This document shows positions 1,887-56,195 of a DNA stretch of 63,929 nt, one piece after another (the stretch's first letter is position 1; each line of letters starts with the position of its first letter). The DNA comes from Candidatus Omnitrophota bacterium (GTDB taxonomy: Bacteria; Omnitrophota; Gorgyraeia; Gygaellales; Profunditerraquicolaceae), in contig JAQUPI010000005.1 of NCBI GenBank assembly GCA_028716705.1, positions 1-63,929 on the forward strand, in the 5' to 3' direction. The translations under genes and the position numbers were made by a program. The notes below the pieces were generated by a model, which was given only the letters and a program-made list of their open reading frames with translations, was not told where the DNA came from and did no database searches.

Positions 1887-1890
1887 GAAT

Positions 1891-3041: not shown

Positions 3042-3420
3042 AAGCCGCAAGGTTAATAGAAGCCTATTATTGCCGGCCTGTGCCTGGTATCTTATGTTCG
3101 CCGTCTTGGCGTCTCCGGTTGTTCTGCGCGCGCAGGAGCGGCCCGTTTACGACTCCAAAGGCAAGCGCGATCCTTTTATTCCGCTTGTCACGCCTGACGG
3201 GAGGCTCCTGAGGCTGCCGGATGAAGGGCAATCGGGCCTTGCGCTGGAAGGCATTATTTACGACGGGCAGGGGACCTCTTACGCGATAGTGAACGGAGAA
3301 GTAGTCAAAGTGAACGACATGATCTCCGGATATCAGGTCCTGGGGATCCGGCAAAATAAGGTTACCTTCATGAAAGAGGGCCAGAAGACGGAAATAGAAT
3401 TAAAGGAGGATGAAAAGTGA
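3028..3420 (+). CDS. PilP / GspC-HR / GspB-like small secretin-docking protein
   Basis: 130 aa. Signal/anchor sequence LLLPACAWYLMFAVLASPVVL. C-terminal LALEGIIYDGQGTSYAIVNGEVVKVNDMISGYQVLGIRQNKVTFMKEG pattern. Lies immediately upstream of the secretin. Confidence 0.55.
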   Translation: MSGNKSRKVNRSLLLPACAWYLMFAVLASPVVLRAQERPVYDSKGKRDPFIPLVTPDGRLLRLPDEGQSGLALEGIIYDGQGTSYAIVNGEVVKVNDMISGYQVLGIRQNKVTFMKEGQKTEIELKEDEK

Positions 3421-32057: not shown

Positions 32058-32058
32058 A

Positions 32059-33469: not shown

Positions 33470-34276
33470 ATGGGCACCGGATGTACGAATGACCTGTTTG
33501 ACGTCAACCTCGCGCATTACGAAAAATTATATTGCGACCCTTTTGAGAGGCGCTCTTTTGAGGTGCGCAGCAAAACCCAGATATTCGATTCCTTGCGGTC
33601 AAAATACTTAAATTCGCCCGCAGGCAAAAAGGCGCTGGATGCGGGTTTTGGCTCCGGAGACATCCTATGTTCGCTATCCAGAAAAGGGGCTGATTGCTGG
33701 GGGACGGAGATCGCGCGTAACGCTATATCTGCGTTGAGCTCGCGTTGTCCAACTTTTAATATCTTAGAATCAAGAATAAGCTCGCTGCCTTTTGAGGATA
33801 ATTTTTTCGATCTTCTCGTTTGCTCCCACGTCCTGGAACACGAAAGCGATGAAAAGGCGGCTATGAAAGAAATGATAAGGGTATTGAAACCGGGCGGGTT
33901 GCTTTTTTTAGGAGTTCCGGGGGCGGCGGTAGGGGAAACAGAGCTGCACGCCCGTCTTTATAAAAAATGCGAACTTTACGGATTTTCCTCCAGTTTTGGA
34001 GTGGATCTGCTCGATTGCCGTGAATACGGTTCCCGTCTTTTTCAGTCAGTATATTATTTCATCAGCGGTATCGCCGCTTCCAATTCCCGGGTAAACTCCG
34101 GCAGTTCCGGAACTGATAAAATCGTAAAATACTCTTTTGTCAGGCGGCTTTACCATTATCTCGTGGTGCCTGCGCTGCTGTTTTTGTACCGGTTGGATTC
34201 AATGGCTGCGGGCAAAGCGCGCCCCATAGAAATATGGGCGGTTTTAAAAAAGAAATATAAGGAAGCTAAAGAATGA
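33470..34276 (+). CDS. Class I SAM-dependent methyltransferase
   Basis: 268 aa. ALDAGFGSGD, FDLLVCSHVLEH and LKPGGLLFLGVP motifs. Confidence 0.8.
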   Translation: MGTGCTNDLFDVNLAHYEKLYCDPFERRSFEVRSKTQIFDSLRSKYLNSPAGKKALDAGFGSGDILCSLSRKGADCWGTEIARNAISALSSRCPTFNILESRISSLPFEDNFFDLLVCSHVLEHESDEKAAMKEMIRVLKPGGLLFLGVPGAAVGETELHARLYKKCELYGFSSSFGVDLLDCREYGSRLFQSVYYFISGIAASNSRVNSGSSGTDKIVKYSFVRRLYHYLVVPALLFLYRLDSMAAGKARPIEIWAVLKKKYKEAKE

Positions 34277-36075
34277 AGAAGGAAATCGCTATTTTTTTAT
34301 CCTTTATTTTACTGATCGCCGCGTTTACCTACCCTTTGGCAACGAATATTAATTCTTATGTCCCCGGGTTTTCTTCCACCGATGAAGTATATGCGCTGAT
34401 AAATTACAGCTGGCTGAATAAATACAGCTGGCAGCACCAATTGCCCCTGAACCGCAGTTTTATGCTCGCTTATCCCTCCGGAATAAATTTATACACTCCC
34501 GGGTTCGTTCCGTTCTTTTGGATCGGCATAATTTATCTTTTGAGCATAGCCACCAGCCCGGCAATAACTTATAATATACAGGTACTTACTAATTTATTCT
34601 TAAGCGCGGCCTTCACTTATTTATTGATCCTGTTCCTTTCCAAAAAAAGATTCAGCGCTTTTTTGGGCTCTTTGATATTTGCTTTTTGCCCGTATCAGTT
34701 TTCCCGGATATGGCAGCATTTAGGGCTGACTTTCAATCAGTGGATACCGTTGTGCCTGCTGGCGGCTTTATTATTAAAATACAGGAAGAGCAAGAAATAC
34801 GCTTTTTTATTCCTCGCAAGCCTGCTGCTGCTTTTTTCTTTTGATTATTCGATCATCTATTTTTCCCTCGTTGGCCTGGCAACCCTTCTTTTTTACTCTA
34901 TTCTTTTCAACTGGAAGAAAAAATTTTCGGAGGGCCGGGGCATGTTCAGGGAAGACCTGCGGTATTTAAAGAAGATCGTTCTTTTGGGTGCCGTTTCTTT
35001 CCTTATCCTTTTGCCGCAAATCATGCCCATAATAAAAAACAGGCTCGGTTTTTCCGTTAAGACGGACCCTTCTCCGTTCAACCTCTTCCACCGCCAGTTT
35101 AACGACCTCTTTTCTCAGGCTGCCAGGCCTTTAAGTTATTTTCTTCCGTCGATATCGCATCCCGTTTTCGGTTCTTTTACGGAGAATTTCATCGGGTCTT
35201 CATTGTACGGAAAAAGCCTCACGGAACACGCCCTTTATTTAGGTTGGACACCGCTTTTTCTGGCCTTTTTTGCTTTGAGATCATGGAGGAAAAGAAGGAA
35301 ATCATGGGGGCCGGAATATCAAGGAACGGAGGAGAATTTTTATATCGGTTTTTCGCTTCTTTTGCTGATTACAGCCTGGTTGTTTTCCCAGCCTCCATGG
35401 TGGAAAATAGGCCCTGTCAAAATATTCATGCCCTCATTTTTCATGTATAAGCTTCTGCCGATGTACCGCGCCTATTGCCGTTTCGGAATTTTAGTTATGC
35501 TGGCGGTAGCGATGCTGGCCGGTTTCGGAAGTAAATTCATCCTAGAAAAGTTAAAAAGGAAGAGGGACCGGATATTGGCGGCGTCTTTATTTACATTCGC
35601 CGTCTTATTCGAATTCTGGAATTGGCCCCCTTACAAGGTCATTGATATATCGGCTGCGCCGTCGGCATATGATTGGCTTAAGGCCCAGCCGGAGGAACTT
35701 GTGGTAGCCGAATATCCGCTTGACGATGATTCTCCGAATGAGATGTATAAATATTATCAGACCAAGCATGAAAAAAAGCTGATCAACGGCAGCACCCCGG
35801 GGACTTACGCTAACCAGGTCGCCAAGACGCTCAAGAAACTGTCCCTCCCCGAGACAGCCGAGAAACTCAAAACTATGGGTGTAAAATACGCCATAGTGCA
35901 CAGGGACGATTACGGCATAACAGGCCTGATCGAGCAGTTGGAAGAGTTGAATAAGATCCCTCTAAACCCCAGGCTAAAATTAGTCACGAGCTTCCCGGAA
36001 GAGGCTTGCCCGAGAAGCGATATCATGTGCGTGCGTAAAAGCGGCCCCATTGATGTTTATGAAATAATCCCTTAA
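34273..36075 (+). CDS. Polytopic membrane protein, GT-C-fold-like glycosyl/oligosaccharyl transferase candidate
   Basis: 600 aa. At least 10 TM segments followed by a ~150-aa soluble C-terminal domain. Acidic motif (STDE) in the first extracytoplasmic loop. The call rests on topology and context only. Confidence 0.45.
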   Translation: MKKEIAIFLSFILLIAAFTYPLATNINSYVPGFSSTDEVYALINYSWLNKYSWQHQLPLNRSFMLAYPSGINLYTPGFVPFFWIGIIYLLSIATSPAITYNIQVLTNLFLSAAFTYLLILFLSKKRFSAFLGSLIFAFCPYQFSRIWQHLGLTFNQWIPLCLLAALLLKYRKSKKYAFLFLASLLLLFSFDYSIIYFSLVGLATLLFYSILFNWKKKFSEGRGMFREDLRYLKKIVLLGAVSFLILLPQIMPIIKNRLGFSVKTDPSPFNLFHRQFNDLFSQAARPLSYFLPSISHPVFGSFTENFIGSSLYGKSLTEHALYLGWTPLFLAFFALRSWRKRRKSWGPEYQGTEENFYIGFSLLLLITAWLFSQPPWWKIGPVKIFMPSFFMYKLLPMYRAYCRFGILVMLAVAMLAGFGSKFILEKLKRKRDRILAASLFTFAVLFEFWNWPPYKVIDISAAPSAYDWLKAQPEELVVAEYPLDDDSPNEMYKYYQTKHEKKLINGSTPGTYANQVAKTLKKLSLPETAEKLKTMGVKYAIVHRDDYGITGLIEQLEELNKIPLNPRLKLVTSFPEEACPRSDIMCVRKSGPIDVYEIIP

Positions 36076-43209: not shown

Positions 43210-44745
43210 ATGAGTATCCCCCATATAAAACTCAAGGATAGGCAGATCCAGCCTTCGGTTATCCAAAAGGTCCCCGCCAAATTCTCCAGCCACTATAAAA
43301 TCGTCCCTGTTGAGCTTAACGACAGCACGTTGACCATCGCCATGGCAGATCCTCTTGACGTACGCGCGCTTGATGACATAAAACTCCTGCTCGGGGTCAA
43401 TGTCGAAGCGGTCCTGGCCAGCGAACTGGAAATAGAAGAAGCCATACGCAAATATTACGGTGTAGGCGCGGAAACCCTGGAGAGCATGGTCTCCAAAGAA
43501 ACAGTTTCCAGGGAGATCATCCGGGAAAGAGAGAAAATTGAGGATGTGGAAAACCTCGCCGAAGACGCCTCGATCATAAAATTTGTCAACCAGATCTTGT
43601 CGGAAGCGGTAAAAGACAGAGCGACCGATATCCACCTTGAGCCGTTTGAAGATGAATTGCGCACGAGGTTCCGGATCGACGGTATGTTATACAGCATAAA
43701 TATCCCCGCGACCATCCGGTATTTCCACCCGGCGATCGTATCCCGCGTAAAGATCATGGCTAATTTGAATATCGCCGAACGCAGGCTGCCCCAGGACGGC
43801 AGGATAAAGATAAAAGTCGATGAGAATGAACTGGACCTTCGCGTCTCCATAATGCCCACAGCGTTCGGGGAAGCGGTGCACATAAGGATATTAAGCCCAA
43901 GTTTCTTCCTGGAATTGAAGAAATTAGGGTTATTGCCGGAGGATCTGGCGATCATCGAGCAGGTCATCCATAAGCCTCACGGTATCATCTTTGTTACCGG
44001 GCCCACAGGATCCGGGAAATCCACTACGCTATACGCCTGCCTGGCGCACATTAACGCCAATGCTGTCAAGATAATCACCATAGAGGATCCGATCGAATAC
44101 CAGTTAAGGGGAGCCAACCAGATACAGGTAAACCCTAAGATAGGGTTGGATTTCGCCGCGGGCCTGCGCCATATTTTAAGGCACGATCCGGATATCATGA
44201 TGGTCGGAGAGGTCCGGGATTATGAAACTGCCGAGACCGCCATACGCTCGGCGCTTACCGGCCACCTTGTGTTCTCCACCCTGCACACAAACGACGCTGC
44301 CGGAGCGATCACCCGGCTCCTGGATATGAAAATAGAGCCGTTTTTAGTATCTTCTTCCCTGGAGTGCCTCATCGCTCAAAGGCTGGTCAGGTTGATCTGC
44401 CCGAAATGCAAAGAGCCCGTTAAGTCAAAAGAAGACATCCTCAGGCAGCTTAAAGACGAGAAAATAGATCTGGATAAGGCAGCTTTCTATGAAGGCAAAG
44501 GCTGCGAAGAGTGCAGGTTTACCGGTTACCGGGGAAGGACCGCCATATACGAGATACTGAATATCAATGAGCCGATCAGAAGGATGGTCCTCGAGCAAGC
44601 TTCCAGCCAGCAGATAAAACAAAAAGCTGTTTCTCTGGGAATGAGGACATTACGCCAGGACGGATTGCAAAAAGTTTTTTCCGGCCTGACCACTTACAGC
44701 GAGGTTTTAAGGGTCACGCAGCAGGAAGAGCTTCCTGAAGGATAA
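43210..44745 (+). CDS. gspE: GspE/PilB-family type IV filament assembly ATPase
   Basis: 511 aa. T2SSE_N-like N-terminus (LTIAMADPLDVRALDDIKLLLG). Walker A GPTGSGKST. Asp box, Walker B and His box. Tetracysteine CPKC..CEEC. Confidence 0.9.
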   Translation: MSIPHIKLKDRQIQPSVIQKVPAKFSSHYKIVPVELNDSTLTIAMADPLDVRALDDIKLLLGVNVEAVLASELEIEEAIRKYYGVGAETLESMVSKETVSREIIREREKIEDVENLAEDASIIKFVNQILSEAVKDRATDIHLEPFEDELRTRFRIDGMLYSINIPATIRYFHPAIVSRVKIMANLNIAERRLPQDGRIKIKVDENELDLRVSIMPTAFGEAVHIRILSPSFFLELKKLGLLPEDLAIIEQVIHKPHGIIFVTGPTGSGKSTTLYACLAHINANAVKIITIEDPIEYQLRGANQIQVNPKIGLDFAAGLRHILRHDPDIMMVGEVRDYETAETAIRSALTGHLVFSTLHTNDAAGAITRLLDMKIEPFLVSSSLECLIAQRLVRLICPKCKEPVKSKEDILRQLKDEKIDLDKAAFYEGKGCEECRFTGYRGRTAIYEILNINEPIRRMVLEQASSQQIKQKAVSLGMRTLRQDGLQKVFSGLTTYSEVLRVTQQEELPEG

Positions 44746-45957
44746 ATGCCGCGTTATTTGTACACCGCCAAGTCCCAGCCGCAAAAGATAGAGCAGGGAG
44801 AGATAGAAGCGGATTCCCAGCTCGACGCCGTGAACAGGCTGGCGAAAACCGGCCATTTCCCCGTCACCATAGAATTAGAGGAAACATTCGCTTTAAATAA
44901 GAACGGTATCTTAAAACTGCGCAGGTTCTCTAAAAGCGATACCGCCGTTTTCACCCGCCAATTATCCACGTTAATAGAGTCAGGCGTAAATCTGCTTAAA
45001 GGCCTCACTATAATTTACAGCCAGTCGCGCGATAAATATTTAAAGGCGGTATTGAGCGATGTCATCGGGCAGGTAAAAGACGGAAAACCCCTTTCCGAGA
45101 GCCTTGCCCGGCACCCCGGTCTTTTTTCTGATCTATATACCTCGATGGCGCGTTCAGGTGAGGTAGGCGGGAACATTGAAGAGGCGCTCAAGCGCCTGGC
45201 CGATCACCTGGATAAAGAAGAAGAATTCAAGAATTCTATCCGCGCCGCCCTGACCTATCCTTTATTTGTATTGGGCGTGGGGGCTTTGACCATAATCGTG
45301 CTTTTAGGCTTTGTCATCCCGAAATTGGTAGAGATGTTCGAGGATATGGGGGAGGCACTGCCTTTACCCACGAAGATCCTGATCGGAATTTCCAACGGGC
45401 TGCGCTCTTATTGGTGGGTCATAATAGCCGTAATCGTTATTCTGGCTTTCTTATTTCAAAGGTTATTACGCGCGGAGAAAGGAATGATTTTCTGGAGCGG
45501 GTTCAAACTTAAGTTAAAGGTCTGGGGCCCGATCACCTTAAAGAGCGAGATCAGCCGTTTAATGCGCACACTTTCGCTTTTACTCTCCAGCGGTATTGCT
45601 ATAGTTTATTCTTTGGATATATCCTCGAAAGTGATCAGTAATCATCTCATTAAGCTTGAAGTGCAAAAATTCAAAGAGCAGATAAGCAGGGGTTTGAGCC
45701 TTTCGCGCTGTTTGAATAATTCCAGGATCTTCCCGGAGCTTGCGGCCAGTATAGTCGCTATCGGGGAAGAGAGCGGTACGCTGGAGGTATCGCTGGCGCG
45801 CATAGCGGATGATTACGAAAGGGATGTCGACCGCTCGCTCAAGGCATTAAGCAGGTTATTGGAGCCGGTAATGATCCTGGTGATGGGCTTGATCGTCGGT
45901 TTTATCGTCCTTTCGATGCTCTTGCCGATATTCCAGATCAACCTTCTGGTGCGTTAA
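44746..45957 (+). CDS. gspF: GspF/PilC-family inner-membrane platform protein
   Basis: 403 aa. Two T2SSF repeats (FTRQLSTLIESGVNLLKGL and LMRTLSLLLSSGIAIVYSL) and three TM segments. Confidence 0.9.
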   Translation: MPRYLYTAKSQPQKIEQGEIEADSQLDAVNRLAKTGHFPVTIELEETFALNKNGILKLRRFSKSDTAVFTRQLSTLIESGVNLLKGLTIIYSQSRDKYLKAVLSDVIGQVKDGKPLSESLARHPGLFSDLYTSMARSGEVGGNIEEALKRLADHLDKEEEFKNSIRAALTYPLFVLGVGALTIIVLLGFVIPKLVEMFEDMGEALPLPTKILIGISNGLRSYWWVIIAVIVILAFLFQRLLRAEKGMIFWSGFKLKLKVWGPITLKSEISRLMRTLSLLLSSGIAIVYSLDISSKVISNHLIKLEVQKFKEQISRGLSLSRCLNNSRIFPELAASIVAIGEESGTLEVSLARIADDYERDVDRSLKALSRLLEPVMILVMGLIVGFIVLSMLLPIFQINLLVR

Positions 45958-45959
45958 AT

Positions 45960-46346
45960 ATGAGAAAGAACGCATTTACGCTGATCGAATTAATGCTCGT
46001 TGTGATCATTATCGGCGTTCTTTCGGCTATGGTCATGCCGAGGTTAGTAGGACGCTCGGAACAGGCGCGCATGGCGGCCGCCGGAGCCGATATCAACGGA
46101 AACATCGCCATAGCTTTGGATATGTTTCAGCTCGATACGGGGGAATATCCCGAAAAGTTGGAAGACTTAAGGCAAAATCCCGGAAGGGATGCTTGGAAGG
46201 GGCCTTATCTGAAAAAAGACCCAAAGGACCCCTGGGGCAGGCAGTATAAATACGAGCTTGTAAGCTCGGGTGCGGAAGGAGAATATAAACTCTGTTCTGA
46301 TGGCGCGGATGAGGCGGATTCAGGCGATGATCTTTGTAACGAATGA
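45960..46346 (+). CDS. gspG: GspG-type major pseudopilin
   Basis: 128 aa. Prepilin signal MRKNA/FTLIELMLVVIIIGVL. T2SSG-type C-terminus (GPYLKKDPKDPWGRQYKY). Confidence 0.85.
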   Translation: MRKNAFTLIELMLVVIIIGVLSAMVMPRLVGRSEQARMAAAGADINGNIAIALDMFQLDTGEYPEKLEDLRQNPGRDAWKGPYLKKDPKDPWGRQYKYELVSSGAEGEYKLCSDGADEADSGDDLCNE

Positions 46347-46797
46347 CAAAAAAGGGTTTACCTTTATAGAACTCTTGATAGTCGTCATCATAGTGGCTAT
46401 TTTAACCGGCGTATCTGCGCCTAAATTAAAAAGGGCCTTTGATAACCTGAGCCTTCAAAATTTTGTAAAGGATATCTATTATTTAAGCTGTTACCTGCAG
46501 GCGCGCGCCATCAGCGAAGGAAGGACCTATTGTTTGAATATCGATAAGGATAGCGGGTTTTTGCGTCCGGCTTACCAGGAGGCCGACACAACTTTAAAGG
46601 AGATAACCGGCAGGTTCGGTAAAGGTCTCAATGTTCCGGAAGGCGTAATCATAACCGAGAGCCCTAAAGGCAAGGAGAGCATATTTTTTTATCCCGACTC
46701 GAGTGTGGATAAAGTAACTTTGGCCTTCGAGAATAAGAGTAAAGATACAGCGACGCTTCTCCTGAAAGGGATTTCCGGTGAAATCAAGATGCAATAA
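46327..46797 (+). CDS. Minor pseudopilin, GspH-like
   Basis: Start chosen at MIFVTNDKKG/FTFIELLIVVIIVAIL (the track start 46270 lies inside gspG). About 156 aa. Confidence 0.65.
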   Translation: MIFVTNDKKGFTFIELLIVVIIVAILTGVSAPKLKRAFDNLSLQNFVKDIYYLSCYLQARAISEGRTYCLNIDKDSGFLRPAYQEADTTLKEITGRFGKGLNVPEGVIITESPKGKESIFFYPDSSVDKVTLAFENKSKDTATLLLKGISGEIKMQ

Positions 46798-47167
46798 AGC
46801 TTTTAGTTTACTGGAGGCGTTGATCGCCACGGCGGTCGTTTCGGCCACAGTTATACTTATCTTCCGTTCTTTCGCCGCCGCTTTATCTTCCGCCCGTCTT
46901 AGCCTGAACATGAGTATGGCGAATTATCTGGCTGCCGATAAGTTATGGGAGATAGAAGAGGCCTGCGCGGTTAAAGGCGGTATCCTGCCCGGACCAACTT
47001 CCGCGAAAATAGCCGGGACTGATTTTGATTGCGGTTATGAGATAGCGGATATTGACGGCTCTTTCGCGGATTTAAAGCGGTTAAAGCTGGTTATCTCCTG
47101 GAGGGAGAGTATGCGTCTTGGAGATTATTCCGTGGATTTCCTGACTTACCTGAGGCCCAGGCAATGA
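46778..47167 (+). CDS. Minor pseudopilin, GspI-like
   Basis: 129 aa, GTG start. MKSRCNKA/FSLLEALIATAVV. Confidence 0.6.
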   Translation: MKSRCNKAFSLLEALIATAVVSATVILIFRSFAAALSSARLSLNMSMANYLAADKLWEIEEACAVKGGILPGPTSAKIAGTDFDCGYEIADIDGSFADLKRLKLVISWRESMRLGDYSVDFLTYLRPRQ

Positions 47168-47748
47168 AAAAAGGAATAACCCTGCTTGAGCTTTTGATAA
47201 CATCTTCGATCTTTTCCGTGATCATATTGAGCTTATACTCGGCCATGCATACCGGCATCATGAGTTATAACAGGTTGGATTCAGCTTCCCGGGCGTATCA
47301 TTCCGCCAGGCTTATCCTCGACAGGCTTGAGCGAGATCTGAGCGGCGCGTTTATTTATTCGGTGGATGGGGCTTTTTTCAAGGGGTCAGTTTCCGAAGTC
47401 GAGTTCTTTAAAAGCGGCCCCGATGAGGATCTTTGCCGCGTTAGATACACTTTTAACGGTGAAGTTTTGGAACGCGCCTGTTATCACGGAATGGAAGCGT
47501 TAAGGCGCGAGCCTGAGGTTCCGGCGGAGGAATTATCCGGCAATGTCAAGGAGATCGCTTTTGAATACGCTTCTTTAGCCCTGAACCCGCAGGGCCGCGG
47601 ATGGCAGAAGTCCTGGCCGCAGGAGAATAACGCTTCAGAAGCGTTCTCTCTTCCGCCAGCCGTCAAGGTAAGACTTTTACTGATCGATCCGGGAAAGCGC
47701 AAAAACCCCGCTTTATTGGAAGTAAGCCGGGTTATACCTTTGCATTAG
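47164..47748 (+). CDS. Minor pseudopilin, GspJ-like
   Basis: 194 aa. MKKG/ITLLELLITSSIFSVI. ATGA overlap with the upstream gene. Confidence 0.6.
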   Translation: MKKGITLLELLITSSIFSVIILSLYSAMHTGIMSYNRLDSASRAYHSARLILDRLERDLSGAFIYSVDGAFFKGSVSEVEFFKSGPDEDLCRVRYTFNGEVLERACYHGMEALRREPEVPAEELSGNVKEIAFEYASLALNPQGRGWQKSWPQENNASEAFSLPPAVKVRLLLIDPGKRKNPALLEVSRVIPLH

Positions 47749-47757
47749 AGGATCGGA

Positions 47758-48759
47758 GTGAAAGATAAAGGTTCTGTGTTGATGATAAGTATGTGGATCG
47801 TGGTAATTTTGGCGATGATGGCCGTAGGCTTGGGTTGGCGGGCCTCGATCAATTTAAAGATGAGCGGTATGCAAAGAGACAGGATGAAGGCGTATTTCCT
47901 GGCGAAGGCGGGATTGCAAAGAGCGATCCTGGAATTAGAGAGCGATAAAAATGATTTTGACAGCCTTAATGAAACCTGGAGCAGCGGTAAGGATCACATG
48001 GGAAAGAGCGTCTTTGAGAATATCGGGATTGGGGAAGGCCCCGGCGGGTCTTTCAGCGTCGGAATAATCGATGAAGACAGCCGGATAAATGTGAATACGG
48101 CTCCGGCATTGCTGATAACCGCGCTGTTGAAAGAATGCGGGATCTCTTCCGAAGAAGCGAACGGGCTAAGTGAGTATATTTGTCTTTGGCGGGGAGACGA
48201 TAACCCTGGTTATAAAAAAGAAGCACAACCGGTATTATTTAAGAGATCTCCCCTGATGAATAAAGCGGAGTTATCGGCGGCCTTCGAATGCTTTTATGAA
48301 AGATCCGGCAGGGATGATTACCTTTTACAAGCCAAGGCCTTATACGCAAAGTTGAAAGATTTGATCACGGTTTACCCGGCGAAGGGAGAAGCTAAAGTGA
48401 ATATAAATACGGTAAGCGCGGCCGCGCTTAAGCCGTTGATAGATAGAGCCCTTGCCAGCCTGCGCGCCGAAGGACAGGATATCAGCTTCGATCCGTCAAC
48501 CTTAAGGGAGAAGATCCTGGAGCACCGCGAGGATAATAATTTCAGCGATACAAAACTGAGAGAAGCTATAGATATAAGCGGACCGGATGAAACAGCCTGC
48601 GAAATGATCTTAAGCAAATTAGAAGAGTCGATCAAGACAAGATCGCGGGAATTCTTGATTACGGTCAGGGCAGAGGCCGCCAAGGCCGGAGCCACGCGCT
48701 TAATTAAGTGCGTCTATGACCGGGAGGATGACAAGGTAGTTTATTGGTCTCAAAATTAA
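47758..48759 (+). CDS. gspK: GspK-like minor pseudopilin
   Basis: 333 aa, GTG start. GSVLMISMWIVVILAMMAVGL; IIDEDSRINVNTA (the typical GspK D-E-x-x-K/R-hydrophobic-N-hydrophobic-N motif); helix-hairpin-helix-like region. Confidence 0.75.
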   Translation: MKDKGSVLMISMWIVVILAMMAVGLGWRASINLKMSGMQRDRMKAYFLAKAGLQRAILELESDKNDFDSLNETWSSGKDHMGKSVFENIGIGEGPGGSFSVGIIDEDSRINVNTAPALLITALLKECGISSEEANGLSEYICLWRGDDNPGYKKEAQPVLFKRSPLMNKAELSAAFECFYERSGRDDYLLQAKALYAKLKDLITVYPAKGEAKVNINTVSAAALKPLIDRALASLRAEGQDISFDPSTLREKILEHREDNNFSDTKLREAIDISGPDETACEMILSKLEESIKTRSREFLITVRAEAAKAGATRLIKCVYDREDDKVVYWSQN

Positions 48760-48761
48760 AG

Positions 48762-50099
48762 ATGAGTAAATTATTCGTTTGCCAGGTTGAAGGGGATTCC
48801 GTAAAGCTGATCATTATGCGGGGCCGAAAAGGAGAGGCCGCGCGCTACCGGCAGTTGCCGTTAAAAGATCTTGTTCCGGAATTAAAGAGGCTCGGTTTTA
48901 ACAACGATAATATGATCTTTTCTTTGCCGCGAAGCCTTGCCGCCTCACGCTACATAAAAATACCTTCGCATTCCCCTCCGGAAATCGAAAGGATGGTAAA
49001 TCTTCAGGCCCCGAGATTCCTTCCTTACCCCGCGGAGGAGCTGATCACCGGGTTTGAAATAGTATCTTTGGAAAAGGACGGCTCTTCCCGGATAAATCTT
49101 GCCATCGCGCAAAAAGACACGATCAACCGTTTGTTGGGATCATTAAGCGGGTTAAAAAGGGCCAAAATAGATGTTTTCATCAGTTCGTACGGGCTTTGCG
49201 GCCTTTATAATCATTTTATCCCGAAGGGTAAGGGCGCTACGGCGCTTATTGACGCGGACGCGGGGGGAATGGAATTAGCCGTTGTTTTAAACGGAAAACT
49301 CGCTTTCAGCCGCCATTCGAAATTTGACGCTTCTCCGGGCTGGAAGAGTTTTTTTATCGAAGAGCTGAAGAAAACCAGGGATTCTTACGCTAAGGAAATT
49401 TCGCCCGAGCCCTGGCAGAGAATATATGTATTCGGGAAAACCGCGTTTTCGGAACAGGTCAAAGGGGTCCTGAATGAGCAGGCCCAATACCCCGTCGAAG
49501 CCGTAACGTATGGAAATTCAGCGGATTCCGAGGCTTCCTTTGCCGCGTTGACCGGGTTAGGGTTGAAGAAAACGAAGGATGATTATTTCAGCCTGCTGCC
49601 CGCGGATCTAAAAGCGGGATACAGGAGGATAGCGCGAAGAAAAAAGGCCGCCAGGATAATTATCTGCGCCTGCGCCGTGGTACTTATAGTTATTTCCGCC
49701 TTCTCGAGGAATTTAAGGGCTAAGGCTGAATATGCCAAAGAGCTCAAAGAGCAGGCCGCCAGAATGGCAATAGAGGCTAAGCCTCTTGAGCGGATAGAGA
49801 AGGCCTTAAGGGTGATGGAGAGCCGCAGGAAGCCGGATATGATCGCGCTTAACGCGCTGTTCGAGCTGCATCAAGTCACGCCTGAAGGGATCTATCTGTA
49901 TAGTTTTAATTTTGAAGAGGGTAACGGCATCAGTGTCCGCGGACAAGCGCAGGAGCTTAATTCGGTATTTGAATTTCTTTCCTCCATGGAAAGATCGCCG
50001 GCCTTCAAGCGCTTCGGCCTGAAGGTAAAATACGCCGCGCATAAAAAGACACAATCGGGAGAAACCGTGGATTTCGAGATCTTTGGTTTAAAGAGATGA
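48762..50099 (+). CDS. PilM-like cytoplasmic domain fused through one TM segment to a PilN-like periplasmic domain (GspL/MshI-like)
   Basis: About 445 aa. N-terminal actin-like part (FSLPRSLAASRYIKIP, LIDADAGGMELAVV). TM segment AARIIICACAVVLIVISAF. C-terminal PilN-like fold. An alternative TTG start at 48744 is possible. Confidence 0.7.
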   Translation: MSKLFVCQVEGDSVKLIIMRGRKGEAARYRQLPLKDLVPELKRLGFNNDNMIFSLPRSLAASRYIKIPSHSPPEIERMVNLQAPRFLPYPAEELITGFEIVSLEKDGSSRINLAIAQKDTINRLLGSLSGLKRAKIDVFISSYGLCGLYNHFIPKGKGATALIDADAGGMELAVVLNGKLAFSRHSKFDASPGWKSFFIEELKKTRDSYAKEISPEPWQRIYVFGKTAFSEQVKGVLNEQAQYPVEAVTYGNSADSEASFAALTGLGLKKTKDDYFSLLPADLKAGYRRIARRKKAARIIICACAVVLIVISAFSRNLRAKAEYAKELKEQAARMAIEAKPLERIEKALRVMESRRKPDMIALNALFELHQVTPEGIYLYSFNFEEGNGISVRGQAQELNSVFEFLSSMERSPAFKRFGLKVKYAAHKKTQSGETVDFEIFGLKR

Positions 50100-50638
50100 C
50101 CCAGAGGATAAGAAAGATCATGAGCAGGCGCGAAAAAATGCTTTTATACGGAGCGGTATGCGTACTTTTTTCATACTTTTTCCTGCGTGTGATCATCTTT
50201 CCGATGATAAAAAGATACAGCGAATTGAACAGCGAAATACGCGTCAACAGGTTGAAATTACAAAAATACGCCCGGCTCTTATCGCAGAAGGATTCCATCC
50301 TCGCCAAGAATGACAGCCTTTCCAAGATCATGATCCTTTCTAAGGAAGAGGGGAGTTCCTCGGTCAGCGCCCTTTCCGAACTGGAAAACCTGGCGAAAAA
50401 CGCGAATATCCTGATCCTCGAGATCCGTCCTCAGTCCGTGAAAAGCACCTCATTACATAAAGAGATGGATATCGAATTAAAGACAGAGGGGGGTTTGCGG
50501 GATTATTTGAAATTTATGTATGATATTGAGCACTCCTTATCGTTATTAACTGTAAAAAAACTAAAGCTTAGCAGCCAGCCTAATACCCAAACGATTGAAG
50601 GCCTCTTCAGCATTTCCCAGCTTTCTATAACAGAGTAA
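50096..50638 (+). CDS. PilO/GspM/MshJ-like inner-membrane assembly protein
   Basis: 180 aa. One TM segment (LLYGAVCVLFSYFFLRVIIF), a coiled coil and a C-terminal alpha/beta part (LRDYLKFMYDIEHS). Confidence 0.6.
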   Translation: MTQRIRKIMSRREKMLLYGAVCVLFSYFFLRVIIFPMIKRYSELNSEIRVNRLKLQKYARLLSQKDSILAKNDSLSKIMILSKEEGSSSVSALSELENLAKNANILILEIRPQSVKSTSLHKEMDIELKTEGGLRDYLKFMYDIEHSLSLLTVKKLKLSSQPNTQTIEGLFSISQLSITE

Positions 50639-50719: not shown

Positions 50720-50941
50720 ATGCGTAATGTATACTTGATCAAGGACTTAGCCCGCATTACCGGCTATTCTATCCACACACTTAAATTCTATCTGAAAACG
50801 GGTTTAATCAAGGAAGCCAGCCGCAGTCCCGAGACCAGGTACCGTTATTTCGACGACGCCAATGTCGAACAGTTAAAAAAGATCCGCACCCTGAGAAAGT
50901 CGGGAAAATCCCTGCGCCAGATCAAAGATGAGCTACTATAA
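50720..50941 (+). CDS. Mini MerR-family HTH protein (DNA-binding domain only)
   Basis: 73 aa. YLIKDLARITGYSIHTLKFYLKTGLI..RYRYFDDANVEQLKKIRTLRKSGKSLRQIK. No effector or long coiled-coil region. Confidence 0.75.
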   Translation: MRNVYLIKDLARITGYSIHTLKFYLKTGLIKEASRSPETRYRYFDDANVEQLKKIRTLRKSGKSLRQIKDELL

Positions 50942-51752
50942 GCTATTTGACCTTCAGAGGGAGCCTTTTTCGACAAGCCCTGACCCGGAATTTTTCTTTC
51001 ATTCCCACAGCCACGGAACAGCGCTTAAGCGTTTAGAGATATCCGTGCGCCTTCGCCGCGGCTTAAATCTTATTTTAGGCGATGTGGGTACCGGAAAGAC
51101 AACGCTGGCTCGCGCGTTCCTGAATTCGTTTTCCGGTGAAGATAACTATATATTCCACATGATCCTTGATCCGGGTTATAAGTCCGAATTCCAATTTCTT
51201 TTTGCCCTGGTGAAGATGTTCGGTATTTCCGTCCCCTTCAAGTCCACGCTGGATTTCAAGGAAGAGCTGGAGAAGTACCTCTTTCAGAAAGGCGTGGATG
51301 AGAATAAAACCATTGTGCTGGTCATTGACGAGGCGCAGAAGATAAACAGCGAGAATCTGGAGGTATTAAGGACGCTTCTGAATTTCGAGACTAATGAATT
51401 TAAGCTTCTCCAGCTGGTTCTCATCGCGCAGACGGAAGTCCTGCCCAGAATAACGCGGATACGTAATTTTATGGACAGGATAGCGTTGAAGTACACCATT
51501 AACCCGCTGGATGAGAAGGAAACCAGGGAGATGGTCCAATTCCGGTTAAGGCAGGCGGGGTATAATAATAAGAAAGAGCTTTTCTCGGAGGAGGCATCAA
51601 AACTTATATACCAGGCCACGCAGGGCTACCCCCGCAAGATATCCATGCTCTGCCATGACGCCCTGGAGGCGGCCGTAATGCGGGAACGCGATTCCGTGGA
51701 CGCGGATATGATCAGATATATAATCGAACGCGAAAGAAGAAATGAAGGATAA
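50928..51752 (+). CDS. ExeA/GspA/MshM-like AAA+ ATPase (ATPase module only)
   Basis: 274 aa. Walker A GDVGTGKTTL; Walker B VLVIDEAQ; LVLIAQ. 14-nt overlap with the MerR-like gene. No TM segment or peptidoglycan-binding domain. Confidence 0.8.
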   Translation: MSYYKLFDLQREPFSTSPDPEFFFHSHSHGTALKRLEISVRLRRGLNLILGDVGTGKTTLARAFLNSFSGEDNYIFHMILDPGYKSEFQFLFALVKMFGISVPFKSTLDFKEELEKYLFQKGVDENKTIVLVIDEAQKINSENLEVLRTLLNFETNEFKLLQLVLIAQTEVLPRITRIRNFMDRIALKYTINPLDEKETREMVQFRLRQAGYNNKKELFSEEASKLIYQATQGYPRKISMLCHDALEAAVMRERDSVDADMIRYIIERERRNEG

Positions 51753-52272
51753 CGCTTCACCCGAAGAAAGATTATTAAAGCTGATCCGGGGAGAAAAGAA
51801 ACAGGGCCCGGCGCTTGACCGCCCCAAGGCGAACAAATTTATACCGTTTATCCTGCCGGCTGTATCAGCGATCCTGATCTTCGCGCTAGTCCTTCCCCGC
51901 TTTTTTCCTAAAAAAACCGATTTGGCCGTAGAGGAGAGAAAAGAGGACGCGGAAGCCTTGCCTCCGGCAGGCGAAGAGGCCAGGCCTTATGAGTATTACG
52001 CTCAGGGGCCGGCCCGTGATATTTTTGGGGCGCCGGCTTCTGATCCTTCCGCGGCTTCGGCGGTTAAGGGGGAGGCGCAGTCGTTTAATGATATTACCTT
52101 GATAGGTATCATCGGCGGCGAAAGCCCTCAGGCTGTCATAGAGGATAAAAAATCGCAGAAAACTTATACCCTTTCCGAGGGGCAGTTCCTGGGAGATTTC
52201 CAGGTAGAAAAGATACTGGAAGGCAAAGTTATTTTGATCTCCAACGGCCGCAGGTACGAGCTTAATATATAA
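51742..52272 (+). CDS. PilP / GspB / MshK-like single-pass protein
   Basis: 176 aa. TM segment FIPFILPAVSAILIFALVL. C-terminal ITLIGIIGGESPQAVIEDKKSQKTYTLSEGQFLGDFQVEKILEGKVILISNGRRYEL parallels the C-terminus of ORF 3028-3420. Confidence 0.55.
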   Translation: MKDNASPEERLLKLIRGEKKQGPALDRPKANKFIPFILPAVSAILIFALVLPRFFPKKTDLAVEERKEDAEALPPAGEEARPYEYYAQGPARDIFGAPASDPSAASAVKGEAQSFNDITLIGIIGGESPQAVIEDKKSQKTYTLSEGQFLGDFQVEKILEGKVILISNGRRYELNI

Positions 52273-52284
52273 ACCGGAGGAAAT

Positions 52285-54090
52285 ATGAGAAATAAACTTT
52301 TATCCTTTTTAATTATTTTAGCGCTTTCCTGGAGCAGCGCGTTTGCGCAGAATACCATCTCCCTCGACCTGAAAGGCATGGATATAGTGGACGCGTTAAA
52401 AATACTGGCCAGCCGGGCGGGTATGAATATCGTGGTCGGCAAGAATGTCTCCGGCAAGGTCACGCTTTTCCTGAAAGACGTCGACGTGCGGGAAGCGCTT
52501 GAGATAATCCTGCTCTCCAACGACCTGGCATGCGAAGAGAAAACGGGCATTATCAGCGTAATGACGCAGAGAGAATATGAGCTTATTTACGGCCGGCGCT
52601 ACCAGGAGAAGAAGTCGACGAAGGGTATTCAGCTGAAATACGCCAAAGCCGCTGATGTTTCCAAGGCCTTAAGCCAGATCAAGAGTAATGTTGGCAAGAT
52701 CGTGACTGATGAGGCATCCAATACGGTTTTTTTGGTAGATTCTACGGAAAAGATCGCGGAGATGGAGGAGGTAATTAAAAACCTGGATCTGCCCCTTGAG
52801 ACCAGGTTTTTTGCCTTAAACTACGCACAGGCGGATAAGCTCAACGCGAAGATACAGGATGTTTTATCAAAAGGCGCCGGTACAATGAAGATAGATGAGC
52901 GCACCAATAAGATAGCGGTAACCGACTATCCACGCAAACTTGATGAAATAACGGCGATAATCAACGCCTTCGACGAGAAGACCCTGCAGGTATTGATAGA
53001 CGCGCAGGTCATCGAAATAAAGCCTTCCGATAAATTCGAAATGGGTATCGACTGGGACTATTGGATAAAGAATCATTTTCGGGTCAGTTCCGCCTTGCCC
53101 GTGGGAACAACGGGAAGGCTTTTGGTAGGCACGGATAATACAACCCCCGCCAGCCCGGGAGATTATAAGGCGGTAGTCGACCTTCTGCGGACTATCGGAG
53201 ACATAAAAATACTCTCCAGCCCCAGGATCATGGCTTTAAATAACCAGGAGGCAAAGATCCATGTAGGGACAAAAGACGCTTACATCACCTCAACCACCTC
53301 TCAGGGCGGAACAGGCACGGCGATTACTTCGCAAAGCGTGAATTTCGTGGATACGGGGATAAAACTTTTTGTAACGCCTACAGTGAACAGGGACGGGTTC
53401 GTGACCATGAAGATAAGGCCGGAGGTGAGTTCGGCTACCCGGACGAATATCACATCCGAAGGCCAGATCACCCAGATACCCATAGTAAGCACTTCCGAGG
53501 CGGAAACCACCATAATGATCAAAGACGGAGTGACCGTGATCATCGGGGGATTGAAAAAGAATGAGCGCAGCAGGGAAGAGAAAAGGGTCCCTATCCTTGG
53601 AAGCATCCCGGTTTTGGGGTGGCTTTTTGGAAGCACGGTAGATGACGCCCGGAGCACAGACCTGGTTATTCTTTTGACGCCGCATATTGTGAGCGCGGAG
53701 AGGCCCTTTTCCGACTTCCGGGATTTAAAGACCGAAGACAGCATAACCGCCGAAATGGTTAAAGGAGAAATAATCATCGAAGGCCCGGCCGGCAATCCGG
53801 AAGAGGAAGAGCCCGGTTTCAGGAAACTTTCAGACTACCGGGGCCTTATCGCGGAAAGAATAAGCACCCTGGCGGCATTTGAGGATGACCGGGGGCAAAA
53901 AGGTAAAGTAGAGCTGTCCTTCGCGCTGAACGCCGACGGGTCCTTAAGCGGCGAACCTGTGGTGGTCTCTTCCACTAATAAAGCCCTGGACGACATATCC
54001 CTTCGCTCTGTAAAAAAAGCGTCTCCCTTCCCATACCTTCCTGAAGGAAAAGAAAAAGAAAATTTCCGGGTCAGCCTGCTGTACAAATAA
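52285..54090 (+). CDS. Secretin (GspD/PilQ/MshL family) with a C-terminal TonB_C-like domain
   Basis: 601 aa. Signal peptide ..SSAFAQ. N0-like ISLDLKGMDIVDALKIL. Secretin core LSSPRIMALNNQEAKI and VIIGGLKKN..VPILGSIPVLGWLFG. Tail YRGLIAERI..GKVELSFALNADGSLSGEPVVVSSTNKALDDISLRSVKKASPFPYLP. Confidence 0.85.
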   Translation: MRNKLLSFLIILALSWSSAFAQNTISLDLKGMDIVDALKILASRAGMNIVVGKNVSGKVTLFLKDVDVREALEIILLSNDLACEEKTGIISVMTQREYELIYGRRYQEKKSTKGIQLKYAKAADVSKALSQIKSNVGKIVTDEASNTVFLVDSTEKIAEMEEVIKNLDLPLETRFFALNYAQADKLNAKIQDVLSKGAGTMKIDERTNKIAVTDYPRKLDEITAIINAFDEKTLQVLIDAQVIEIKPSDKFEMGIDWDYWIKNHFRVSSALPVGTTGRLLVGTDNTTPASPGDYKAVVDLLRTIGDIKILSSPRIMALNNQEAKIHVGTKDAYITSTTSQGGTGTAITSQSVNFVDTGIKLFVTPTVNRDGFVTMKIRPEVSSATRTNITSEGQITQIPIVSTSEAETTIMIKDGVTVIIGGLKKNERSREEKRVPILGSIPVLGWLFGSTVDDARSTDLVILLTPHIVSAERPFSDFRDLKTEDSITAEMVKGEIIIEGPAGNPEEEEPGFRKLSDYRGLIAERISTLAAFEDDRGQKGKVELSFALNADGSLSGEPVVVSSTNKALDDISLRSVKKASPFPYLPEGKEKENFRVSLLYK

Positions 54091-54131: not shown

Positions 54132-56195
54132 ATGCCTGTATTTATTTTCCTGTTTATCAATTCCATAGTAGGATTAAGCGCCTATATCGCCGTTTACAAG
54201 CTATTCCAATATAAGGGTTTTGTTGACGCGCTGATCTGCTGGTTCGTCTTTTATTTCAGCCAGATCGCGTTGACCTCGCTTATATTGGGGGTCCTGTCCC
54301 AGCTTAGGCTAAGTAATCTTATTCTCCTGAATTTAATTACGCTGTTTTCCCTCTGGCTGGTTTCCAGAAAACGCGCTTCTTCCTTCGATCCGCGGCCCCT
54401 TAAGAATTCTCTGCCCGCGCTTTTTAGCAATAAAGTTATACTTTTGGCCCTAAGCGTAATTCTTTCCTTCGGCGTGGTCAAGATCTTCATAAATTTGGTT
54501 AATCCTCCTTTTGGATGGGACAGCTTGAATTACCATTTTACTTTTCCCGTCGAGTGGCTCAAAAACGCTAATCTGCATACGCCTATCACCGTTTTCGACG
54601 ACCCTTCCCCGAGTTATTACCCTATAGGGGCAAGCCTTTATTTCTTCTGGTTGATCTTGCCTTTTAAAAGCGTGTTTATGGCGGACTTGGGCCAGGTGCC
54701 CTTTTTTGTCCTCGCGTTTTTCGCGGTATTCTCTATATCAAGAAAACTGAGCTTAAACAGGGAATTTTCTTTCCTTGCCGCTTCGCTCTTCTTTATGATC
54801 CCGAATTTTTTTAAACAATTACAGATCGCCTACGCGGATGTGATGATGGCGGCCCTGTTCCTGGCCTGCCTGAATTCGCTTTTCCTGTTACGCGGGGAAT
54901 TCTCGCGGCGGAATACGCTGAGCTGGAGCCTGAGCCTGGGGTTAATGCTCTCCACAAAAACCGTTGCTTTGCCATACTCCGCCCTTTTAACCATCCCGTT
55001 CATTTATTTGACTGTGAAAAACATTAACCGGGTCTATTTATTTTTCTTCTCGGCTGCCGTCGTTTGCGCGCTAGGCGGATTCTCTTATATCAGGAACTTC
55101 ATAGAAGCTCAAAATCCGTTGTATCCGTTAAACCTGTCTTTTTGGGGCAGGGAGATCCTAAAGGGCCCGATCAGCGCCGCGGATTACAGGTCGCGTTTTA
55201 GCCTTGGAGATTACCGTTTTGTTAAAATGCTTTTTCACGAGGGCCTGGGTTTGCAGACACTCCTCTTTGTTTTGCCTGCTTCTTTTTTGGCTTTGCCAAT
55301 TGCCTTCATAAAAAAAAGGAGAGGGGTGGGTTTTTTCAAAGGTTACCTGTTCTGTCTGCCTGTTCTCCTCTTTTTGGCCTACCGTTTCATAATTCCCTAC
55401 GCGAATCTAAGATACTTATATCCGCTTTTGGGCCTGGGTGTTATCCTGGCTTTTTATACCGCGGATAAATTGAATTTGCCAAGATCATCGATAAATATCC
55501 TGAGCGCGATCTGCGTCATTAGCTCTATGGCGGAGCTGGCCAAGCGCAGGGAGCTGGTTACTTCAGCAATACTGGCGATTTTGATTTTCGCGTTATCCTT
55601 GATCATGATTATCCGGAGGCCGAGGATCCCGGTAAAAAAATCCGTTCTTTACATGGGGATCGTTATTTCGGCGGTCATTTCTTTGTTTGTCCTCCAGGAT
55701 TATTACATAAAAAATGAATACCCAAGATATTTAAAGATGGTAAAATACTCAGGTTTCTGGCCGGATGCCGCCAAGGCGTGGGATTGGCTGAACTCAAATA
55801 CAGAGGGAGATAATGTCGCTTACGCGGGCAGGCCCGTGCCTTTTCCGCTGTACGGGACAAATTTTAAGAACAATGTTTATTATGTTTCCGTAAATAAGAC
55901 AGAACCGGCAAAGCTGCATTATTTTCCCGATAGCGATTACGCGTGGGGGGAAGATTTCATAAGCCTGCATATGAGCTTCGAGGAAGAAGGCAATTACCGG
56001 GGTGGGGCGGATTTTTCCACCTGGATGAATAACCTGGGGAGGCGGGGCACGGATTATTTATTCGTTTATTCGCTGCACCAGACAAAAGAGCTCGCCTTTC
56101 CGGTGGAAGATGATTGGGCAAGGCAAAATAAAGTATTCTTCCGCCCCGTTTTTATCAACGATACCATACACATTTACAAGATCAGTAAAGGATAA
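54132..56195 (+). CDS. Large polytopic GT-C-fold-like glycosyltransferase (ArnT/PMT-like candidate)
   Basis: 687 aa. About 14 TM segments plus a ~170-aa C-terminal soluble domain. Loop motif PPFGWDSLNYH. Followed by a polyprenyl-P GT2. Confidence 0.5.
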   Translation: MPVFIFLFINSIVGLSAYIAVYKLFQYKGFVDALICWFVFYFSQIALTSLILGVLSQLRLSNLILLNLITLFSLWLVSRKRASSFDPRPLKNSLPALFSNKVILLALSVILSFGVVKIFINLVNPPFGWDSLNYHFTFPVEWLKNANLHTPITVFDDPSPSYYPIGASLYFFWLILPFKSVFMADLGQVPFFVLAFFAVFSISRKLSLNREFSFLAASLFFMIPNFFKQLQIAYADVMMAALFLACLNSLFLLRGEFSRRNTLSWSLSLGLMLSTKTVALPYSALLTIPFIYLTVKNINRVYLFFFSAAVVCALGGFSYIRNFIEAQNPLYPLNLSFWGREILKGPISAADYRSRFSLGDYRFVKMLFHEGLGLQTLLFVLPASFLALPIAFIKKRRGVGFFKGYLFCLPVLLFLAYRFIIPYANLRYLYPLLGLGVILAFYTADKLNLPRSSINILSAICVISSMAELAKRRELVTSAILAILIFALSLIMIIRRPRIPVKKSVLYMGIVISAVISLFVLQDYYIKNEYPRYLKMVKYSGFWPDAAKAWDWLNSNTEGDNVAYAGRPVPFPLYGTNFKNNVYYVSVNKTEPAKLHYFPDSDYAWGEDFISLHMSFEEEGNYRGGADFSTWMNNLGRRGTDYLFVYSLHQTKELAFPVEDDWARQNKVFFRPVFINDTIHIYKISKG

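Follow-up and report, generated by a model that had tools for sequence, protein, structure and literature searches.

A type II secretion system secretin of Candidatus Omnitrophota with a C-terminal TonB-type domain

The secretin gene and its C-terminal domain

The stretch of DNA considered here (the window) comprises 63,929 nucleotides of contig JAQUPI010000005.1 from a Candidatus Omnitrophota bacterium (assembly GCA_028716705.1), and it carries a block of type II secretion system (T2SS) genes whose last member, at 52285..54090, encodes a GspD-type secretin of 601 amino acids (plus stop codon). The secretin gene, its parts and the operon described below lie on the + strand. The open reading frame (ORF), the Pfam and NCBIfam matches and AlphaFold2 (AF2) models together define the product as an outer-membrane secretin of a type II secretion system that bears a TonB-type head on a flexible tether. 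An earlier note, made from the sequence alone, had placed the end of the secretin core (LVILLTPHIV) at about base 53691 and a TonB-like domain at 53818-54087 (residues 512-601). Both positions are exact, the core ending at residue 469, base 53691.

The protein begins with a signal peptide, residues 1-21 (MRNKLLSFLIILALSWSSAFA, followed by QN; 52285..52347), which was read by eye from the sequence with a cleavage site between AFA and QN, and of which residues 2-14 are helical in the AF2 model. No lipobox cysteine was found on reading this signal peptide, so the secretin is not of the lipidated, self-piloting type. An N0 (STN-like) domain follows (residues 24-102; 52354..52590); its Pfam matches are weak, with STN at 23.2 bits and type_II_gspD_N0 at 21.6 bits both under their cut-offs, but the AF2 model does contain the fold, with compatible secondary structure. 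Two Secretin_N domains of the N1/N3 type (residues 111-167 and 172-229; 52615..52971) are recognized by Pfam in two stretches (80.3 bits) and by AF2. The beta-barrel core (residues 235-469; 52987..53691) consists of long AF2 beta strands and is matched by Pfam Secretin over residues 301-469 at 164.9 bits, against a cut-off of 27.5 (E-value 1.6e-48). Signal peptide, N0 and Secretin_N domains and barrel place the protein in the secretin superfamily (PF00263). A Foldseek search with the full-length AF2 model retrieved many secretins, with E-values down to 5e-22, and the closest folds are the T2SS secretins PulD (6hcg), GspD of enterotoxigenic Escherichia coli (5zdh) and ExeD (6i1x). The equivalog models of NCBIfam are not reached, neither that for GspD (TIGR02517, 238.3 bits vs a cut-off of 351.35) nor that for PilQ (TIGR02515, 265.6 vs 284.35); by these scores the secretin is divergent in sequence and is an equivalog of neither. 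The Pfam scan matched no AMIN or other wall-binding domain in the secretin, and a scan for promoters and terminators around the gene end gave nothing beyond shuffled expectation.

The last 87 residues of the protein (515-601; 53827..54087) form a TonB/TolA-type C-terminal domain, as identified by Pfam, NCBIfam, AF2 and Foldseek. The earlier note had called the region TonB_C-like from its sequence pattern, and each of the profile models that bear on the point is matched above its cut-off: Pfam TonB_C (PF03544) over residues 535-590 at 36.3 bits, vs a gathering cut-off of 24.6 (E-value 7.7e-9); Pfam TonB_2 (PF13103) over residues 516-596 at 29.1 bits vs 22, covering nearly the entire length of the model; and NCBIfam TIGR01352 (tonB_Cterm) at 39 bits vs 27.1, with Pfam Secretin likewise above its cut-off. 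An AF2 model of the tail (residues 460-601, built with a 32-sequence alignment) gives residues 515-601 a predicted local distance difference test (pLDDT) score of ~87-97 and an alpha-beta-beta-alpha-beta order of elements, with which the full-length model agrees: a helix at 515-532, strands at 540-549 and 559-563, a second helix at 567-579 and a last strand at 591-600. The resulting three-stranded sheet packed on two helices (pLDDT ~90) is the C-terminal domain (CTD) fold of TonB and TolA. When the tail was compared with the Protein Data Bank (PDB) by Foldseek, the best 21 matches were all C-terminal domains of TonB, HasB, FusB or TolA. The first of these is the Helicobacter pylori TonB-CTD (5lw8; E-value 1e-4, target template-modelling (TM) score 0.68, root-mean-square deviation 2.9 A over 89 columns, 28% identity), and TolA III (3qdp) reaches a target TM score of 0.70; a sequence profile of the tail searched against PDB sequences also finds H. 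pylori TonB, at an E-value of 2.6e-6. Core residues G540, F546, G552, P558 and F594 are invariant down to ~40% identity within the family. The TonB-type match is well above chance.

The secretin carries a domain of the TonB/TolA superfamily but is not a TonB. Binding of the motor by TonB and TolA requires their N-terminal helix (PMC12204202). A transmembrane (TM) helix of the S..H or SHLS type for docking to ExbB/ExbD is absent from the N-terminus of the secretin, which consists of the signal peptide and then N0; with a cleavable signal peptide and no TonB-type TM helix, the protein cannot engage ExbB/ExbD or transduce proton-motive force. Relatives deposited at NCBI are named "secretin N-terminal domain-containing protein", "TonB C-terminal domain-containing protein", "TonB family protein" or "energy transducer TonB", and the latter two names are misleading for these secretins: such annotation inflates the apparent number of TonB proteins in Omnitrophota genomes and hides a secretin.

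Conservation and origin of the fusion

Among 5.8 billion proteins searched, 1754 relatives reached an E-value of 1e-10 or below. The best 120 of these, which were examined, are 57-68% identical to the window protein and 600-745 amino acids long, and all 119 of them with an alignable barrel end have a tail of 130-175 amino acids with the same motifs. When the search was repeated from a deep-branch relative, 119 further proteins came up, and 117 of them have the domain; the two without it are shorter (463 and 495 amino acids). The domain is in frame in ~236 of 239 related protein clusters. At the level of loci, one genome per GTDB species was scanned with the single peptide pattern L[VI]ILLTPHI, which favours close relatives, and 52 loci were recovered; together with the window, 50 of the 53 have secretin and domain joined in frame. 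A frameshift or stop falls within the domain at two loci (L012 and L035), and two others (L047 and L052) lack the domain wholly and keep the rest of the secretin. Where a source organism is named, it is in nearly every case Candidatus Omnitrophota or Omnitrophica (Candidatus Gorgyraea among them); a few loci are labelled Planctomycetia, Planctomycetales or Deltaproteobacteria, and some proteins Portnoybacteria/Patescibacteria (labels as deposited, with possible misbinning). On this comparison of sequences the fusion is kept across the phylum Omnitrophota.

The two loci that lack the domain (L052:8534-10129; L047, with the secretin end near 10147) come from Omnitrophota representatives, and their stop codons lie 33-40 amino acids past the barrel. 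L052 is also without the MerR and AAA ATPase genes that are found upstream of the window secretin. The two loci provide natural controls for loss of the domain.

A trivial origin of the tail had to be considered. The earlier note had named a frameshift or assembly join with a separate downstream gene as what would undo the fusion, and a frameshift, or a join with a downstream TonB-like gene, is ruled out by the in-frame tail at 50 of 53 loci and in ~236 of 239 clusters, from independent assemblies. More broadly, the domain could be an artefact of that kind or a decaying, functionless remnant, as might be thought from the broken domains of L012 and L035, the two loci without it and one remnant that joins the start of gspG to the tail of gspD. 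Such an explanation is most improbable: in ~240 clusters the tail is in frame and terminal, the invariant core residues have been kept over the divergence of the family, and the fold is predicted with high confidence.

The remnant is P0187 (L056:10001-10606; NCBI UCH12639.1, from CP070655.1, 1.14 Mb), a protein of 201 amino acids annotated as prepilin-type that consists of residues 1-49 of GspG, the sequence FLTPRI, a linker and a TonB-type domain. No T2SS genes lie nearby, and FLTPRI corresponds to the end of a secretin barrel. It was weighed as a second architecture, a pseudopilin fused to TonB_C, and is read instead as what an in-frame deletion from gspG to gspD left behind. Duplication within the gene also occurs. 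P0121 (851 amino acids, from a Logan contig of 3319 bp) is a secretin of the same family with three tandem TonB-type domains at 515-601, 630-716 and 765-851, and its first and second domains are mutual nearest relatives, which suggests internal duplication.

The source of the domain was sought with a domain-only profile against 1.84 billion cluster representatives, which yielded 6511 proteins at an E-value of 1e-3 or below and 568 at 1e-10 or below. The best 150 were classified: 39 are secretins or secretin fragments, 39 are short fragments, 36 are signal-peptide proteins with 2-5 tandem copies (one of them from Candidatus Omnitrophica), 33 are proteins of 190-250 amino acids that combine the C-terminal domain with a TonB-type N-terminal helix (e.g., ALIISLAVHSGIVLL), and 3 are other long proteins. 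Among the tandem-domain, signal-peptide proteins are P0122, P0124, P0147 and P0148; P0122 is the one from Candidatus Omnitrophica and has five copies, and one cluster member reaches 1183 amino acids.

The nearest non-secretin relatives of the domain are the proteins of 190-250 amino acids with an N-terminal S..H TM helix. Their C-terminal domains have the motifs YY..KI, G.V..F, ASPFPxFP and F.I.L.Y in common with the secretin-borne ones, at a mean identity of 31% and a maximum of 43.5%. Neighbour joining groups the 78 secretin-borne domains without exception in a single exclusive clade; the TonB C-terminal domains, all 27 of them, group in another. By motifs and tree, the secretin-borne domain is a paralogue of the C-terminal domain of the lineage's own inner-membrane TonB, and, since all secretin-borne copies fall in one clade, the simplest reading is a single capture of that TonB head followed by vertical inheritance.

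Possible role of the tethered domain

In T2SS secretins of solved structure (PulD-PulS, GspD-AspS), the polypeptide comes out of the barrel just beneath the outer membrane, at the outer periplasmic face, and there the S-domains meet their pilotins. The window domain follows the barrel at the C-terminus, where an S-domain would sit, as the earlier note had observed. If the chain exits at the same face, then the ring presents a dozen or more tethered heads there: a secretin of 12-15 protomers would display 12-15 TonB-type domains beneath the outer membrane. The C-terminal domains of TonB and TolA capture their targets by beta-strand addition to peptides (PMC12204202), and each secretin head could in the same manner take hold of a peptide strand exposed by some partner in the envelope, for which an outer-membrane protein with a TonB-box-like strand or another component of the secretion system would be candidates. 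Through that contact the secretin would be targeted, anchored or stabilised, and the contact between S-domain and pilotin would be replaced, as would the peptidoglycan contact of GspA proteins of the ExeA type. The fusion probably tethers the channel to another component of the envelope or directs it there. That the domain is specifically a passive, tethered docking module which targets, anchors or stabilises the secretin is put forward tentatively, as the favoured reading, though one with a fair amount against it. The earlier note had supposed that the domain anchors or pilots the secretin and replaces a pilotin or the periplasmic, peptidoglycan-binding part of ExeA, which is a reasonable conjecture. 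Because the domain is paralogous to a TonB CTD and that fold binds peptides, a protein partner is favoured over the cell wall. Docking by the head also gains from the want of other targeting devices: no lipobox, no AMIN or other wall-binding domain and no pilotin-like gene in the operon came to light.

Several points weigh against this proposal. The geometry of the C-terminus is borrowed from solved T2SS secretins, and the docking partner is a candidate only, the binding being one that we infer from the fold. Tandem copies, as in P0121 and in the proteins with 2-5 copies, would suit a repeating polymer, for instance peptidoglycan, no less well than a single peptide. Two lineages have lost the domain (L047 and L052), which makes it accessory rather than essential. 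A search of the ORF list and Pfam matches found no pilotin-like gene in the operon, and this says little, as pilotin genes are often unlinked.

Between barrel and head lie two further elements. The first is a conserved post-barrel segment (residues 470-500; 53692..53784), defined by conservation and AF2, with a predicted beta-hairpin at 488-499 and the family consensus SGE..YTDFSEIKPKDGAVAKM.KG.IVTEKI; AF2 predicts no helical S-domain in the secretin, and the hairpin segment occupies that place and may be its analogue. The second is a variable acidic linker (residues 501-514, GPAGNPEEEEPGFR...; 53785..53826), with pLDDT under 50 in both AF2 models. The acidic character that the earlier note gave to the whole connection holds for residues 469-511, with 12 D/E vs 4 K/R. 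Among 166 relatives the barrel end and the domain are separated by 17-99 amino acids (median 42), the variable part of the linker abounds in E, K, S, A and P, with KP/EP-like repeats in some (e.g., PKKLVPKKLVPEKLVPEKLVP), and the domain is the exact C-terminal end in 144.

The post-barrel segment has suggested an explanation in which the head never leaves the ring: the domain would bind the hairpin of its own or a neighbouring protomer and so clamp the multimer, as S-domains do. In the main clade this segment of ~30 amino acids is better conserved than the TonB-type domain itself, hairpin and domain lie only a short spacer apart, and the second strand of the hairpin faintly resembles, through the letters I-V-T, the TonB box EKIVVTPSR of a receptor in the lineage. 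The segment also rises in pLDDT from 36-42 in the tail-only model to ~57-67 in the full-length one (for the hairpin, from ~40 to ~60). Hairpin and domain are, however, separable modules, since the hairpin segment is kept without the domain at L047 and L052 and the reverse holds for deep-branch relatives. The AF2 tail-only model leaves the hairpin undocked at pLDDT 36-42. The motif resemblance is within what chance would give for a beta strand, and the window hairpin reads GEIIIEG, without threonine. Such a staple within the ring is improbable. Two more specific candidates were rejected. The hairpin as a mimic of a TonB box has only I-V-T in common between G.IVTEK and EKIVVTPSR, and docking of the hairpin on the domain in cis has no support from the tail-only model, in which residues 460-508 are under pLDDT 50.

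The receptor in question lies in a genome that also carries the fusion. There, P0272, a TonB paralogue of 236 amino acids, is encoded directly 3' of a receptor with Plug and TonB_dep_Rec domains and the TonB box EKIVVTPSR, and the pair lies behind cobalamin salvage (CobU/T/S) and BtuCDF-like genes, the receptor itself being BtuB-like. The stored Pfam annotation overlooks this TonB, which on rescanning reaches 24.4 bits with TonB_C, vs a cut-off of 24.6. A single contig of 226,779 bp carries the P0272 gene together with the secretin-TonB_C gene and T2SS operon, ~15 kb apart (L054/L055:5923-8711, L057:10001-11875); in this relative the receptor adjoins the 236-amino-acid TonB and not the secretin.

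That a fusion-carrying genome has a paralogous TonB gene next to a BtuB-like receptor whose TonB box is canonical lends some interest to a functional coupling, in which the secretin-borne domains would capture the TonB boxes of receptors, either clustering import with secretion or competing with TonB, or would receive secretion substrates. Long, flexible linkers would give the heads a wide reach, and giant putative effector genes are found repeatedly beside T2SS-like loci of Omnitrophota (bioRxiv 10.1101/2023.11.21.568195; 10.64898/2026.06.07.730766). Against this, the 57 scanned window ORFs (nearly all large ORFs upstream of 58100) gave no match to Plug, TonB_dep_Rec or ExbB/ExbD, and the window has no giant gene. 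The secretin-borne clade is only ~31% identical to the TonB CTDs, so that its specificity may have diverged; the C-terminus would lie outside the channel, off the path of substrates; and the arrangement would be without precedent. Coupling of this kind is judged hardly probable. Another reading, also a long shot, has the heads of the ring recognise TonB-box-like strands on outer-membrane proteins, so that the ring would have a built-in pilotin, with new monomers docking on resident proteins, or would form a hub of secretion and uptake with TonB-dependent importers. In a more extreme version still, the real TonB of the lineage might pull on the post-barrel hairpin and gate the channel in dependence on proton-motive force, with the tail domain as a cap in the resting state.

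A wall ligand is suggested by the genes directly upstream of the secretin. The first encodes a GspA/ExeA-like AAA ATPase of 274 amino acids (50928..51752; Pfam AAA_22, 69.9 bits), the best NCBIfam match of which is the XrtA/PEP-CTERM-associated ATPase at 186.8 bits, under its cut-off. The second, overlapped by the ATPase gene by 11 nucleotides, encodes a bitopic GspC/GspB/PilP-like protein of 176 amino acids (51742..52272; Pfam T2SSC, 26 bits vs a cut-off of 27) whose N-terminal tail is cytoplasmic and whose single TM helix is followed by an HR-type domain in the periplasm. In Aeromonas and Vibrio the ExeA/ExeB (GspA/GspB) genes are likewise arranged, with an AAA ATPase translationally coupled to a bitopic HR-domain protein directly upstream of the secretin. 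Aeromonas ExeA binds peptidoglycan (PMC4098917). Unlike ExeA, the window ATPase has neither TM segment nor periplasmic peptidoglycan-binding part; its matches are of the AAA type alone and no hydrophobic segment was seen by eye, which upholds the earlier note on this point. A cytoplasm-only ExeA-like ATPase is not unusual in itself.

The ring might then be fastened to the wall by its tethered domains, with peptidoglycan or some other polymer of the periplasm as their ligand, a role like that of AMIN domains for PilQ and of the ExeA periplasmic domain for ExeD. An ATPase without its wall-binding part, beside a secretin without AMIN, is in keeping with this, and so are L052, which is without both ATPase and domain, the linkers of 40-100 amino acids, long enough to reach the wall, and the tandem repetition (three copies in P0121, 2-5 in other proteins, including those of Omnitrophota) that is typical of wall-binding modules. 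Kaserer et al., in J Bacteriol in 2008, are reported to have claimed peptidoglycan binding for the C-terminus of E. coli TonB. The Pfam scan, however, matched no accepted peptidoglycan-binding motif or family, and the nearest relatives of the domain are bona fide TonB proteins adjoining a TonB-dependent receptor. Peptide binding by beta-strand addition is the documented mode of the fold (PMC12204202), and contact of the Ton system with the wall is ascribed to ExbD in the title of Zinke et al. 2024. An anchor of this kind is, on balance, unlikely, and docking on a protein partner is preferred.

Comparison with known systems helps to define what such a docking module would replace. Secretins carry varied accessory modules, and the solutions by which they are targeted or fixed include pilotins, lipidation, AMIN domains, ExeAB and TsaP. 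With GspD, PulD and ExeD the window protein has in common the N0/Secretin_N/barrel layout, the gsp operon, the full-length fold and an extra module at the site of the S-domain; unlike those that work with PulS or AspS, it has only two Secretin_N domains, has a hairpin, disordered linker and TonB head in place of a helical S-domain, and is without a linked pilotin gene. With TonB and TolA it shares the CTD fold and families, the ASPFPxFP and terminal beta-strand motifs of Omnitrophota TonB and, in some relatives, KP/EP-like linker repeats. It differs in having no S..H TM helix and no coupling to ExbBD or TolQR, in belonging to a separate clade, and in that its head would be held at the outer membrane, by the secretin, and not at the inner membrane. 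The AMIN domains of PilQ, peptidoglycan-binding accessory modules present in one to three copies at its N-terminus, are similarly an extra periplasmic binding module that is sometimes tandem; they differ in fold and sit at the opposite end of the protein. HxcQ-type secretins also have their own targeting or anchoring device and no separate pilotin; unlike HxcQ, the window secretin has no lipobox, and the device proposed for it is a C-terminal protein-binding domain rather than an N-terminal lipid anchor. Elsewhere, assembly of secretins needs pilotins and ExeAB (PMC3276575; PMC4098917).

No description of a Secretin+TonB_C fusion was found in the literature on secretins, TonB, Omnitrophota and type II secretion. 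Secretins go unmentioned in a survey of how TonB and TolA evolved (PMC12204202), and two papers on Omnitrophota genomes report T2SS-like loci and flanking "TonB-domain" genes and do not note the fusion (bioRxiv 10.1101/2023.11.21.568195; 10.64898/2026.06.07.730766). What the fusion represents is a different, phylum-wide solution, in which the target-binding head of the lineage's own TonB has, by the paralogy described above, been recruited onto the channel; it offers a concrete handle on the targeting of secretins without pilotins. Should a peptide strand of some outer-membrane protein indeed be what the heads bind, the secretin would be targeted by a new principle that needs no pilotin, and a TonB head would for the first time be seen at work without its motor on the side of the periplasm that faces the outer membrane. 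The Omnitrophota themselves are mostly uncultured, are often ultra-small and are possibly predatory.

The secretion operon and the remainder of the window

The remaining genes of the T2SS operon lie at 43210..50638 and were assigned from Pfam, NCBIfam, the ORFs and synteny: gspE, gspF, gspG, gspH, gspI, gspJ, gspK, a gspL-like PilM/PilN fusion and gspM. In NCBIfam, GspE (611 bits, cut-off 630) and GspF (391, cut-off 424) fall slightly under their cut-offs, and GspH, GspJ, GspK and GspM are also matched. A gspC-like gene (that of the bitopic protein), gspE-M and gspF stand in one co-directional block with the secretin gene last, and gsp genes are present without a retraction ATPase; the block is a type II secretion system. 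The gspG gene is at 45960-46346 (ORF list and Pfam). For the gspH-like ORF at 46270-46797, the listed GTG start overlaps the end of gspG by 77 nucleotides and the prepilin motif begins only at residues 25-28; the true gspH start is probably further downstream.

A gene for a MerR-family regulator of 73 amino acids (50720..50941; Pfam MerR_1, E-value 9.8e-18) separates gspM from the AAA ATPase gene. The interior of a secretion operon is an unusual site for a transcription factor, and the gene has the same position in 29 of the 52 related loci. Gene order in the operon is kept at the related loci, with the ATPase syntenic at 38 of the 52 and the HR-domain protein at 42, and the genes 3' of the secretin are not conserved across them. 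In the window, the ORF directly 3' of the secretin (54132-56195) encodes a polytopic membrane protein of 687 amino acids, without a Pfam match and not syntenic in relatives, and is followed by GT2 and O-antigen-ligase-like genes. Two other ORFs, at 34273-36075 (600 amino acids) and 21372-22373 (333 amino acids), likewise have no Pfam match.

A second type IV filament module occupies positions 101-5039 of the window, in the order pilM-pilN-pilO-(gap)-secretin. Its PilQ-like secretin (3417-5039) has no AMIN domain; it also has no C-terminal tail, as the earlier note had said, for it ends 30 amino acids past the Secretin domain and gives no TonB_C match. The 249-amino-acid ORF at 101-850 is without a Pfam match. 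Between the two secretin loci, at 16927-39613, is a large surface-polysaccharide cluster with many glycosyltransferases of families GT2 and GT4, sugar epimerases and dehydratases, and a carbamoyltransferase. Three of its genes encode B12-binding/radical SAM proteins (19755-21353, 28113-30347 and 32017-33462), the second of them as a fusion with a methyltransferase, and several other methyltransferases are encoded on their own; this content suggests heavily methylated glycans.

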